IMG/VR virus record: IMGVR_UViG_2737471837_000006
Length of the DNA: 7,880 bases
DNA from: a virus
Taxonomy: Duplodnaviria; Heunggongvirae; Uroviricota; Caudoviricetes
Strand: one strand, 5' to 3'
In this document: in pieces, positions 6,001 through 7,880 of the stretch
Layout of the letters: each line of letters starts with the position of its first letter
How positions within the stretch are numbered: the stretch's first letter is position 1
Made by a program: the position numbers

Positions 6001-7880
6001 AACATATACTAGAAAAGCAATAGCTATAGCAACGCCTGCAAATGCATCGGGCCGGCTCATTGGTGCGCCCCCTGTATCGCTTCTACTGCGATCTGACTGG
6101 CGTATTTGTTAATGGTAACGATAAGTTCTTGCTCGGCCTCATCCAGACAACCACCGATACCTCGCCTGTCACCTTCAGAAGCATCGAAATCTGCACGAAG
6201 CCTGGCGACCTTCAGGATTGCGGACAACACCTCATCAGGGATTGCCGGAGAGTTGGTTGACGTTTCCGAGGTTATCCGAAAATTATTGGTTGACGAATTC
6301 TTATTTTCCCGAAAGTTTTCGGCATGAAGCATGGCGGTGTTATACCCATCCGCGAAAATCTCTGCTTCTTCGTTATTCAGTTCGGCACCAAGTTTAAGCG
6401 CAATAGCTTTTGCCATTGAGGCGGTAATTTGATGGCATGGCTGACGTCCATGAAGCATGGCGTCGCTCCGCTCTATGCCATCCAGCGCAATTCGAAGCGC
6501 ATGAATTGTAGTAATGCTATCGTTTGGGGTTATTCCGTATCGTTCGAATACAGCGATATGGTTGCGCATAATCGCAGGTGTAAGCTCTTTGTAAGCAAGA
6601 GCAAGAGGTCCAGATACATCGTTCAGCACTACCGTCATCGGTGAGGCGGCGTAGACTTCAATAATCCCAGTATCAATAGGCCATTCCCCATCCTTGATAT
6701 AGTAACTTGTTCCGTCAACTTGCTGTTCTACAATGTGGAAAGCACCTATTGGTTCTGCTTCCAGCGATGCCAGTGCAATTTTGAATAACTCGCCCTCTAC
6801 CCGTGCCATCCCTGAACTGGGGTAGCATTTCGCAATCGCTATTTTTAATTTGGCTTCTTCGATTAATTGCTCTTTGGTTAATTCAGTCACTTTTCATTAC
6901 CGCCCTTTCGGGCGGCCTCCTGATGATTGAGGGTGCAGGGTTCCCTCCAGTAAAGGATTAATCTTTATTACAATGCTGAATTTAATTATTCAGATTTGGA
7001 TTCCGCTTTCAGAACAGCCTCTGCCATTCTGATATCTGAATTTTCTGAAATCATCTTTTCTGGTGAATCGCAGTCACCACCACATTCAGTAATGCGTTCG
7101 TAACCAGAACGAATTGTGATTTTATACGCATTAATCATTTGCATAAGCGCGTCTGTCAATTCTACAATGCGTTTGTCTTTATCTTCCAGTTCATCAAGAA
7201 CCTTCTTTATGGCTGGTGAATGTGTCATATAACTCGCAGCCGGACCAGCAAGCATTATCCTGAGCTGTGCTTTCGCTTTTTCTATTCTCATCTATGCCAT
7301 CACCTTGTTTCGCAACCAGACACAAACCGGACCATCTTCAGTATCATGAATGGAGCCAATAAACCATCCATTGCCCTCTGGTCGTTCCGGTTCCCAGGCG
7401 GAAATATCGGGGTCATCTGCAACCGGATTTAAATAATCTTCATCCATGCTGCAAATAGTCCACTGAAGATTATTTGCCTTCATCCAGGCGCTAAACTCTT
7501 CCGTTGAAATATATTCCCGACCGTCACAGAACTTTTCATATTCTGGATGTGTCCAGCAGCCATATTCATCACGTTCTACTGGTATTTCTCTAATTTCATT
7601 CATTTCTGTTCTCCCATGTTTTCAGACTTTCACCGCAGAACGGGCAAAATGAAACCCGAACTGGTGATTTAGAAAATTCACCGGAACGGGTAATGACTCC
7701 AACTTATTGATAGTGTTTTATGTTCAGATAATGCCCGATGACTTTGTCATGCAGCTCCACCGATTTTGAGAACGACAGCGACTTCCGTCCCAGCCGTGCC
7801 AGGTGCTGCCTCAGATTCAGGTTATGCCGCTCAATTCGCTGCGTATATCGCTTGCTGATTACGTGCAGCTTTCCCTTCAG

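Follow-up and report, generated by a model that had tools for sequence, protein, structure and literature searches.

Three small genes in the nin region of a Rac/lambda-like prophage: a PHROG 1372 domain and putative recombinants of the EaA and Ea22-like families

The accessory genes of the nin region form a general class within the organisation of lambdoid genomes, and eaA of phage P22 is a gene of the early-left "ea" region. Among the relatives of the genes described here, only Ea22 of lambda is characterised: it biases infection toward lysogeny (PMC7093339). Ea22 proteins are tetrameric coiled coils whose C-terminal domains vary (PMC7093339, PMC10834534), and they are mosaics that include a DUF551-bearing variant (PMC10834534).

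We examined a stretch of 7,880 nucleotides of Caudoviricetes DNA (the window), in which genes for proteins of 103, 101 and 277 amino acids (aa) lie between an IS1 end and the hok locus. A first-pass annotation had singled these genes out as a block of uncharacterised proteins and had speculated that they might serve superinfection exclusion or anti-phage defence. We read them as three separate, non-essential accessory cassettes of the nin region of a Rac/lambda-like prophage rather than as one system, and would give this reading a probability of roughly 0.7. The block would thus be ordinary mosaic early-gene cargo, routine for lambdoid prophages, and the main value of the analysis lies in the annotation that it clears up.

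Locus layout and genomic setting

ORF calling found all three ORFs where the first-pass annotation had placed them, each on the minus strand (Table 1). They are co-directional, as described there, and the TAG stop of the 103-aa gene (7294-7292) abuts the ATG of the 101-aa gene at 7291. The IS1 end and hokD were both verified as flanks, but the boundaries are less clean than a block between IS1 and hok implies. On the upstream side lies the remnant of a cut 84-aa ORF, whose stop codon and the ATG start of the 103-aa gene share bases (ATGAATGA); on the other side, the 277-aa gene is separated from hok by two very short hydrophobic ORFs of 25 and 34 aa. The uncut form of the 84-aa ORF is WP_001563199, found in locus L001. 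We considered this ORF as a Lar-like partner and rejected it: it has no Pfam match, and the upstream gene varies among loci.

Table 1. Coordinates of the three genes, their modules and the flanking elements in the window
Feature	Position	Strand	Description
hokD	5444-5599		
277-aa gene	6057-6890	-	GTG start; modular, EaA/"DUF551 domain-containing" family, without DUF551
C module, residues 218-277	6060-6239	-	IPDEVLSAILKVARLRADFD...INKYASQ; ends QGAHQ*, where relatives run on into DUF551
S/T/N-rich linker, residues 188-217	6240-6329	-	NFRENKNSSTNNFRITSETSTNSP; invariant columns F193-F204
Residues 50-187	6330-6743	-	module A (50-147) and 41-residue insert B (148-187), from alignment
Residues 1-49	6744-6890	-	N-terminal helical hairpin and IALASLEAEP junction; matches phrog_660, phrog_5117 and phrog_3323
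Leader of the 277-aa gene	6900-6921	-	Shine-Dalgarno (SD) AGGAGG and CCGCCC-GAAA-GGGCGG hairpin; 9 nt before the GTG
101-aa gene	6986-7291	-	chimera: N module (residues 1-44), C module (45-101)
103-aa gene	7292-7603	-	ATG start; compact α+β domain, PHROG 1372
84-aa ORF, 3' remnant	7596-7688	-	30 codons, ...FCPFCGESLKTWENRNE*; 5' part cut off by IS1
IS1 end	7689-7880	.	inverted repeat GGTAATGACTCCAACTTATTGAT

The IS1 segment matches annotated IS1A/IS1B copies from 4,957 genomes at 100% identity, and the alignment with a near-identical locus that is free of IS1 reaches window position 7688. In that locus the block is preceded by a DnaT-like gene (in the O position), P, DUF1627, DUF977, a SAM methyltransferase gene and the 84-aa ORF; it is followed by hokD, DUF1367 (NinB-type), DUF1364 and DUF1133, and then by lysis genes. 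A similar slot was seen in O157:H7, in other E. coli prophages and in P1-like plasmids. The nin-region location and the orientation with the early-right operon hold in the IS1-free locus, in O157:H7 and in other prophages. The region is the nin stretch of a Rac/lambda-like prophage, and synteny thus bears out the earlier placement of the genes in a variable early-region slot with co-directional early cargo.

Promoter and terminator counts inside the block do not exceed those of shuffled sequence. The genes would normally be transcribed together with the upstream early genes, by antiterminated read-through from an early promoter during infection or induction. In the window, IS1 sits between the block and those genes, and the presumed early promoter would be located beyond it, outside the window. 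The insertion of IS1 85 bp upstream of the 103-aa gene cut the preceding gene; the block has probably lost its link to transcription from the early promoter and is likely to be poorly expressed in this prophage. IS1 can also drive outward transcription, which counts against this polarity argument.

Families and modules of the three proteins

The first-pass annotation could match none of the three proteins to a known family. For the curated collections this stands: the HMM scans it had proposed, against Pfam, NCBIfam and PADLOC, returned nothing above noise for any of them, the best match in PADLOC-DB 2.0 (Cas12c, for the 101-aa protein) having E = 0.03 and a score of 10 bits. It does not stand for phage families, since PHROGs and homology searches place all three proteins in populous ones, with tens to thousands of homologs each. 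These homologs, together with the purifying selection on the 103-aa gene, indicate that the ORFs are more than chance. The relatives fall only in phage families that have no assigned function, in agreement with the suggestion that the function is undescribed, and homology of all three proteins to housekeeping replication or recombination proteins, named in the first-pass annotation as the counter-evidence, was not found. Relatedness among the three proteins received profile-profile probabilities below 1% (0.1% in hhalign).

The 103-aa protein matches phrog_1372 at E = 3.7e-53, with residues 1-101 aligned to profile positions 55-157 of 194, and its conserved motifs are RDxYGxWTHP and GWFIGSIHDTEDGPVCxWLR. 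It has 146 close homologs, and a profile search extends its relatives to 946 clusters at 50% identity. With a dN/dS of 0.04-0.24, the gene is clearly under purifying selection. Structure prediction, which had also been proposed, gave a confident AF2 model for this protein (pLDDT 87) and a poor one for the 277-aa protein (pLDDT 44.5). Even for the confident model no structural neighbour was found in the PDB, and a PDB sequence search with the family profile and with single sequences gave no match. The structural matches in BFVD are likewise uncharacterised phage proteins of PHROG 1372, for which no Pfam or NCBIfam model was matched. Homologs occur in 69 phage records, every one of them annotated as hypothetical, and a literature search with the protein accessions and PHROG identifiers found no papers. 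We also considered the domain as a divergent DUF551, both occupying C-terminal slots and carrying W/P/G motifs, and rejected this at an hhalign probability of 0.3%. Homologs are spread over temperate phages, P1-like phage-plasmids and loci beside a traU-like gene, the last of which are apparently conjugative elements.

Judged from its sequence, the 277-aa gene appears to be a recombinant of the EaA/"DUF551-domain" family, built of exchangeable modules joined at conserved junctions. Homology searches gave 6,693 matches, many of them at 98-100% coverage and 54-98% identity, and homologs begin identically with the N-terminal MTELTKE. Most end in PF04448, the C-terminal domain of about 68 aa (GWIS...THWMPLPEPP) that we took as the mark of DUF551. 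The relatives P0003, P0015 and P0025 match PF04448 at 1e-19 to 1e-21; the 277-aa protein has no match to it at E<=1 and lies outside DUF551 in this sense. It belongs with the EaA/DUF551-associated family by its other modules, to judge from full-length similarity and from invariant junction and linker columns, and two PHROG profiles cover most of it at about 1e-35 each (phrog_6847 over residues 7-152, phrog_14306 over residues 184-273). The ending without DUF551 recurs elsewhere, in a 187-aa protein of O157:H7 and in 18 of 54 EaA-like neighbours of the 103-aa gene.

Each part of the 277-aa protein has its own distribution. Residues 1-49 are its sole confidently modelled part (pLDDT 72-86), and the DNA that encodes them (query 687-833) was matched alone in other genes by megablast. 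The central module is matched piecewise at the DNA level (query 392-552), and P0001, P0003 and P0007 have insert B, which P0010, P0015 and P0025 lack. The first-pass annotation had described two regions joined by a Ser/Thr/Asn-rich linker; the linker is real, at residues about 188-217, and is the most conserved segment of the family in the alignment. Its DNA (about 90-100 nt) recurs by itself, at 91-92% identity, in DUF551 genes that are otherwise different (H56, H141-H143). This pattern suggests that the linker is likely a module-exchange junction, one that would serve the whole family. Modules of the 277-aa protein are also found in EaA of P22-like phages, in P7 Upf89.5, in ES18 gp36 and in Stx phages.

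The leader in front of the 277-aa gene, with a minimum free energy of -22.1 kcal/mol (z = -2.1), has exact copies in 33 of 117 fetched loci. In the IMG/VR loci it lies about 100 nt past the 103-aa gene, at the position where EaA-like ORFs typically start, and EaA-like genes share it as a conserved leader. Constraint on the 277-aa gene is weak (ω 0.3-0.9), as is expected of fast-evolving accessory cargo.

The 101-aa gene appears in turn to be a recombinant, of the Ead/Ea22-like coiled-coil family. Its N module (residues 1-44) is common to small hypothetical proteins, and its C module (57 residues, GGDCDSPEKMI) is common to Ead/Ea22-like proteins at 71-76% identity; this identity covers 70-76% of the query (residues about 25-101) in alignments with PF13935-bearing proteins. 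Between the two modules lies a coiled-coil junction, LDELExKDKRIxEL, conserved as LDELEAKDKRIAEL. PF13935 itself has no match in the 101-aa protein at E<=1, and in the homologs it matches residues 2-105, upstream of the common C module. The protein is thus tied to the Ead/Ea22 group by the common module around the coiled-coil junction and not by the Pfam model. A PDB sequence search detected no similarity to the solved C-terminal domain of lambda Ea22. Where an analogy with Ea22 is drawn, the module that the 101-aa protein has in common with Ea22-like proteins is a non-Pfam one only.

Separate cassettes or a functional unit

The whole block is present in 13 of 5,426 complete E. coli genomes. 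Taken singly, the 103-aa gene occurs in 820 of these genomes, the 101-aa gene in 13 and the full 277-aa gene in 25; pieces of the 277-aa gene are found in 1,007 genomes, and the 5' 135 nt of the 101-aa gene stand alone in 11 further ones. The neighbours of the 103-aa gene fall into 15 clusters upstream and 20 downstream. The three genes assort independently, without the fixed co-occurrence by which a multi-gene system would generally be recognised, and the idea of a three-gene block acting as a system did not hold up. It is this independent assortment, along with the family relationships, the mosaicism and the early-operon position, that our reading of separate cassettes takes as its observations. 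Under that reading the 103-aa domain would be a portable module of mobile elements, used alone or fused to other small domains, and the proteins may bind host or phage proteins, tuning early development or blunting host responses by analogy with lambda Ea22.

Only one pairing recurs, between the 103-aa gene and EaA-like genes. The downstream DNA is long enough in 68 IMG/VR loci; in 54 of these an EaA-like ORF lies within 2 kb past the 103-aa gene, and in 40 it is directly adjacent. The 101-aa gene separates the two in only 6 of 74 loci. Fusions are known as well: P0290 joins a 103-aa-type domain to an EaA-like N module and P0324 joins one to a C module, and phrog_60 and phrog_660, both matched by the 277-aa protein, are each matched by 2 of 70 fusion relatives of the 103-aa protein. 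The adjacency is much more frequent than would be expected of independent cassettes, and together with these fusions it suggests that the two genes may work together. They could form a two-gene unit, with a conserved core and a hypervariable specificity partner, into which the 101-aa gene was inserted later; the variety of the upstream clusters and the conserved leader before the EaA-like ORF are consistent with such a unit. We nevertheless regard it as doubtful. All 80 IMG/VR loci are at least 80% identical to the query, so that the adjacency may be inherited synteny, and sampling at the level of species gives a mixed set of neighbours (int/xis, a TraR-like zinc finger, ASCH, a methyltransferase, traU). 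The 103-aa gene is found in hundreds of genomes, but each EaA-like variant is rare. The fusions are rare as well (P0324 is known from 1 metagenomic contig, and the P0290 cluster has 2 members on 2 contigs) and could therefore be read-through or assembly artefacts.

The fusions of the 103-aa-type domain bear on a further alternative, namely that this domain is a counter-defence module of phages and plasmids (anti-restriction or anti-signalling) or a host-takeover module, with the block as anti-defence cargo. All 70 fusion relatives match phrog_1372. Their partners include Lar restriction-alleviation domains in 3 and an Rv2179c-like 3'-5' exonuclease in 2, with single cases of Tad2-like anti-Thoeris, DHH/DHHA1, HTH, KTSC and TrwB; the cluster of the exonuclease fusion, a RefSeq protein, has 6 members and that of the Lar fusion 3. 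The early-expressed position and the spread over temperate phages, phage-plasmids and apparent conjugative elements would suit such a role, a spread that resembles that of known anti-restriction genes. To the extent that they point anywhere, the fusions would point to phage counter-defence or host takeover rather than to host defence. An annotated partner is, however, present in only 11 of the 70 proteins, the Tad2-like and DHH fusions were each seen only once, on short metagenomic contigs, and a partner with an anti-defence role says nothing sure about the activity of the 103-aa domain itself. A further partner domain ("ERQRQ...AEIERLDR"), suspected to be MazZ/DUF550-like, had no match in Pfam or the PDB. 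Lar_restr_allev and Tad2-like domains are fused to some distant relatives of the 103-aa protein only and gave no match in the window proteins, and sequence and structure searches found no similarity of the 103-aa protein to known anti-defence proteins. We consider this alternative unlikely. Its combination with the pairing described above, in which an undescribed mobile-element domain would act in counter-defence or host takeover with the EaA-like partner supplying variable target specificity, seems rather improbable; in it, the conserved residues H19, H86, D87, E89 and D90 would be candidates for a metal- or ligand-binding site. The domain is nonetheless the part of the locus with the wider reach, being widespread, strongly conserved, outside Pfam and NCBIfam and devoid of structural neighbours. 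Should it turn out to serve counter-defence or host interaction, a function would follow for many early genes of Enterobacterales prophages now called "hypothetical", those of O157:H7 included.

The block, or at least the 277-aa ORF, might instead be non-functional and in decay, the remains of a cryptic prophage in which a truncated EaA/DUF551 gene and debris from recombination have been silenced by IS1. PGAP annotates no more of the 277-aa ORF than its final 96 codons, labelled as a "DUF551 domain-containing" pseudogene fragment; the ORF lacks the DUF551 domain, its AF2 model is poor, and the C module and linker are nearly neutral, with ω about 0.9-1.8 from few substitutions (1 synonymous versus 6-8 nonsynonymous for the C module). 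In the syntenic prophage of strain 06-00048 an internal stop interrupts a terminase gene and recE carries a frameshift, and IS1 disrupts the operon in the window. Against decay, the 277-codon frame is intact and occurs in 25 genomes, and one strain carries two 100% identical copies of it, one of which is annotated as an intact protein. The DUF551-less ending is widespread and stable, the 103-aa gene is under purifying selection, and the exact 101-aa protein is found on 391 contigs. Decay is quite unlikely to be the explanation. The 277-aa ORF is better described as a DUF551-less EaA variant, which the NCBI pipeline treats inconsistently, as a pseudogene at one locus and as an intact protein at another of the same strain.

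The idea of the first-pass annotation, a prophage-expressed system of three genes for superinfection exclusion or anti-phage defence, might be suggested by the variable early-region slot, the three uncharacterised functions and the adjoining hok toxin-antitoxin locus, but it is very improbable and nothing points to it: there is no PADLOC match, the components assort independently, promoter and terminator signals do not rise above chance, the orientation of the genes is that of the lytic early operon, the relatives are EaA and Ead/Ea22-type phage early proteins, and scans with Pfam, PHROG, NCBIfam and PADLOC revealed no domain of ATPase, nuclease, TIR, Sir2 or transmembrane effector type in any of the three proteins.

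Comparison with known phage early genes

As separate cassettes, the three genes compare well with the accessory genes of the lambda nin region. Like these, they lie between the replication genes and the NinB/Q-type genes, they are small, co-directional ORFs that are tightly packed or overlapping, and they are highly mosaic; none of the three proteins matches a curated Pfam or NCBIfam family, those of named nin genes included. The 277-aa protein has the same N-terminal helical module, IALASLEAEP junction, module A, NSSTNNFR linker and C module as the EaA family. It differs in ending without DUF551, and insert B is present in only some of its relatives. Its gene lies in the nin region, whereas the matching segments of Stx phages are at 3-9 kb of their records, which we infer to be the early-left "ea" region. 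The 101-aa protein is a mosaic in the manner of the Ead/Ea22 proteins, with variable ends around a conserved coiled coil, but it has a different N module and is encoded in the nin region instead of the exo-xis region. The 103-aa protein, finally, is an ordinary member of PHROG 1372, alongside the proteins of mEp460, Rac-SA53, D6, PY54 and mEp213 and gp46 of Burkholderia phage phi1026b.

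Gene borders and prophage setting

The first-pass annotation placed three co-directional genes, the first two directly adjacent, between IS1 and hok, and the six-frame ORF list bears this out: all three lie on the minus strand, the TAG that closes the 103-aa ORF abuts the ATG of the 101-aa ORF, and an IS1 end and hokD bound the block. The MTELTKE N-terminus of the 277-aa ORF also opens its homologs in alignment. Of 5,426 complete E. coli genomes, 4,957 carry annotated IS1A/IS1B copies to which the IS1 segment is 100% identical, and alignment with the near-identical, IS1-free locus of E. 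coli 06-00048 (NZ_CP015229.1) stops at window position 7688.

Features of the block and its surroundings, with coordinates in the window
Feature	Position	Strand	Basis or remark
103-aa ORF	7603-7292	minus	six-frame ORF list
101-aa ORF	7291-6986	minus	six-frame ORF list
SD AGGAGG + hairpin	6900-6921	minus	22-nt element
277-aa ORF	6890-6057	minus	GTG start; six-frame ORF list
25-aa ORF	5983-6060	minus	very small, hydrophobic; ATG overlaps TGA of 277-aa gene
34-aa ORF	5843-5947	minus	very small, hydrophobic; WP_001278459 in many genomes
hokD	5444-5599		ORF list and annotated related locus
IS1 end	7689-7880		match to annotated IS1A/IS1B copies
IS1-cut 84-aa ORF + IS1 end	7596-7880		
AB5 toxin gene pair	1926-3144	minus	
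241-aa ADP-ribosyltransferase	2419-3144	minus	annotated 'scabin-related'
160-aa subtilase-family B subunit	1926-2408	minus	

The earlier description overlooked an 84-aa ORF cut by IS1, the 25-aa and 34-aa ORFs, and a Shine-Dalgarno (SD) sequence and hairpin before the 277-aa gene. The 84-aa ORF, Zn-ribbon-like (C...C...CPFCG) and intact in strain 06-00048, has a stop codon overlapping the start (ATG) of the 103-aa gene, from which it follows that the transcription unit extends further upstream. The IS1 insertion lies between the block and the early genes upstream of it, and probably lowers the block's expression in this prophage. The two hydrophobic ORFs, both placed between the 277-aa gene and hok, may encode membrane peptides. 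In the leader of the 277-aa gene, AGGAGG lies directly 5′ of a GC hairpin whose 6-bp stem carries a GAAA (GNRA) loop, and the GTG follows after 9 nt more, a geometry suggesting that the hairpin brings SD and start codon together or regulates translation. Exact copies of the element occur in 33 of 117 fetched loci; in the IMG/VR loci it sits about 100 nt past the 103-aa gene, where ORFs of the EaA/'DUF551 domain-containing' (EaA-like) family typically begin.

The block is 100% identical to the 06-00048 locus, where the order runs from cI/Cro-like, YdaS/YdaT, DnaT-like (in the lambda O position) and P genes through DUF1627, DUF977, a SAM methyltransferase and the 84-aa ORF to the 103-aa, 101-aa and 277-aa genes, the 34-aa ORF and hokD, and then to DUF1367 (NinB-type), DUF1364, DUF1133, an AB5 toxin pair, holins and endolysin. 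The region is thus demonstrably the nin region of a Rac/lambda-like prophage, within the rightward early operon, and similar slots occur in O157:H7, other E. coli prophages and P1-like phage-plasmids. The 5300-7880 stretch showed no excess of promoter-like or terminator-like sites over shuffled sequence. The AB5 pair, low in GC (0.31-0.40), is flanked by a Q-like antiterminator gene and holin/endolysin genes, the slot of the stx genes in Stx phages; its ADP-ribosyltransferase appears pertussis-toxin-like from its N-terminus.

Families and modules of the three proteins

None of the three proteins had been assigned to a known family. This stands for the 277-aa protein in Pfam, NCBIfam and PADLOC scans, but all three are now tied to catalogued phage families, a relationship that is demonstrated for each gene and that for the 101-aa protein consists in a shared module. 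The 103-aa protein matches phrog_1372 (E=3.7e-53) and has 146 close homologs in Enterobacterales prophages, every one annotated as hypothetical, with conserved motifs RDxYGxWTHP and GWFIGSIHDTEDGPVCxWLR; its gene is under strong constraint (dN/dS 0.04-0.24). Homologs occur in 69 phage records, whose range extends from Escherichia to Burkholderia and Vibrio, and in some elements of Enterobacter, Citrobacter and Atlantibacter (fetched loci L107 and L109-L112, at about 3000-4300) a putative traU-like gene comes directly downstream of a family gene, suggesting that the family inhabits conjugative elements as well as phages. Searching 1.84 billion representatives with a profile recovered 946 proteins with the domain, many of them multi-domain. 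Among 70 of the longer members scanned, partners were Lar restriction-alleviation (3/70) and Rv2179c-like 3′-5′ exonuclease (2/70) domains, each seen in several sequences, and Tad2-like, DHH/DHHA1, HTH, KTSC and TrwB domains (1/70 each, the Tad2-like and DHH fusions being singletons); the remaining fusions had partners without annotation. Four proteins (P0308, P0333, P0338 and P0324) carry, N-terminal to the 103-aa-type domain, a recurrent domain of about 100 aa (ERQRQ..EGW..HDD...WKP..RRxLVKAGALILAEIERLDR) that has no match in Pfam or among PDB sequences and is suspected to adopt a MazG/MazZ-like fold.

The 101-aa protein, for which a homology search found only 33 homologs, reads as a chimera. 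Residues 1-44 are common to small hypothetical proteins with different C-termini, the coiled-coil junction LDELEAKDKRIAEL is shared by all, and residues 45-101 (GGDCDSPEKMI...) correspond, at 71-76% identity, to the C-terminal module of PF13935 (Ead_Ea22) proteins, whose Pfam match covers the N-terminal 100 residues, outside that module. Ea22 proteins themselves keep a conserved coiled coil within an otherwise mosaic build; one Stx variant has DUF551 at its end, and Ea22 favors lysogeny (PMC10834534, PMC7093339). Clustering at 90% identity grouped the 101-aa protein under a 103-aa-family representative (P0123), a link probably created by a fused ORF such as P0122, which matches both; the grouping looks like a clustering artefact.

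The mosaic structure, with its conserved junctions, is clearest in the 277-aa protein. It matches phrog_6847 (residues 7-152), phrog_14306 (184-273) and several N-terminal PHROG families besides, and most of its 6,693 homology-search hits are titled 'DUF551 domain-containing protein' or 'Eaa protein'; most homologs bear PF04448 (DUF551). Alignment resolves a variable N-terminal helical hairpin, an invariant IALASLEAEP junction, a central module A, a 41-residue insert B in some relatives only, an invariant S/T/N linker and a C module. The protein ends at QGAHQ*, and relatives run on into a C-terminal DUF551 domain. This ending is no private lesion, since linker, C module and ending are shared with a 187-aa protein of O157:H7, the DUF551-less architecture recurs in 18 of 54 EaA-like ORFs from related viral contigs, and the gene exists twice in strain 06-00048, as 100% identical copies in different prophages (the block locus and 1405529-1406362). 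PGAP calls the second copy an intact 'DUF551 domain-containing protein' and, of the copy in the block, only the last 96 codons, as a pseudogene, an annotation inconsistency. At the DNA level the gene matches piecewise (N module, part of module A, linker alone, linker plus C module), each piece matching different genes, the signature of recombination at conserved junctions. Constraint is weak (against a P1-like homolog, ω is about 0.3-0.6 in the N and A modules and about 0.9 in linker plus C module; substitutions versus O157 are too few to gauge it), and the AF2 model (pLDDT 44.5) is unreliable except for the N-terminal hairpin.

Assortment of the genes

The suggestion of a three-gene anti-phage or superinfection-exclusion system found no supporting result. 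The genes demonstrably assort independently: among 5,426 E. coli genomes, 13 have the block complete, 820 the 103-aa gene (with 98 matches on plasmids), 13 the exact 101-aa combination (its 5′ 135 nt alone in 11 further) and 25 the 277-aa gene. Because, in addition, profile comparison finds the three families unrelated to one another and the neighbors of the 103-aa gene fall into 15 upstream and 20 downstream clusters, the three genes do not form a system. The sole recurrent association is between the 103-aa gene and an EaA-like gene of variable architecture, which follows it in 54 of 68 loci, 40 of them adjacent. That these two constitute a unit would accord with this order, with the exactly conserved SD-hairpin leader ahead of the EaA-like ORF and with rare fusions linking the two protein types; however, all 80 loci of that set are closely related and neighbors are heterogeneous in species-level sampling, and we therefore hold the two-gene unit as a rival rather than the preferred reading.

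Possible roles and relation to known families

We infer that the three are accessory genes of the delayed-early class, transcribed by read-through from the early promoter, and that their products, by analogy with Ea22, would act on host or phage targets through protein-protein interaction. The fusion partners of the 103-aa domain and its spread across mobile elements suggest that it may serve counter-defence or host takeover. The block is otherwise ordinary, and the 103-aa domain alone merits experiment. The closest families are already catalogued: PHROG 1372, of which the 103-aa protein is an ordinary member; the Ead/Ea22-like proteins, with which the 101-aa protein has a module in common but falls below the PF13935 model in a Pfam scan; and the EaA/DUF551-associated family, to which the 277-aa protein belongs through common modules, but without DUF551, and whose modules recur in EaA of P22-like phages, P7 Upf89.5, ES18 gp36 and the left early region of Stx phages.
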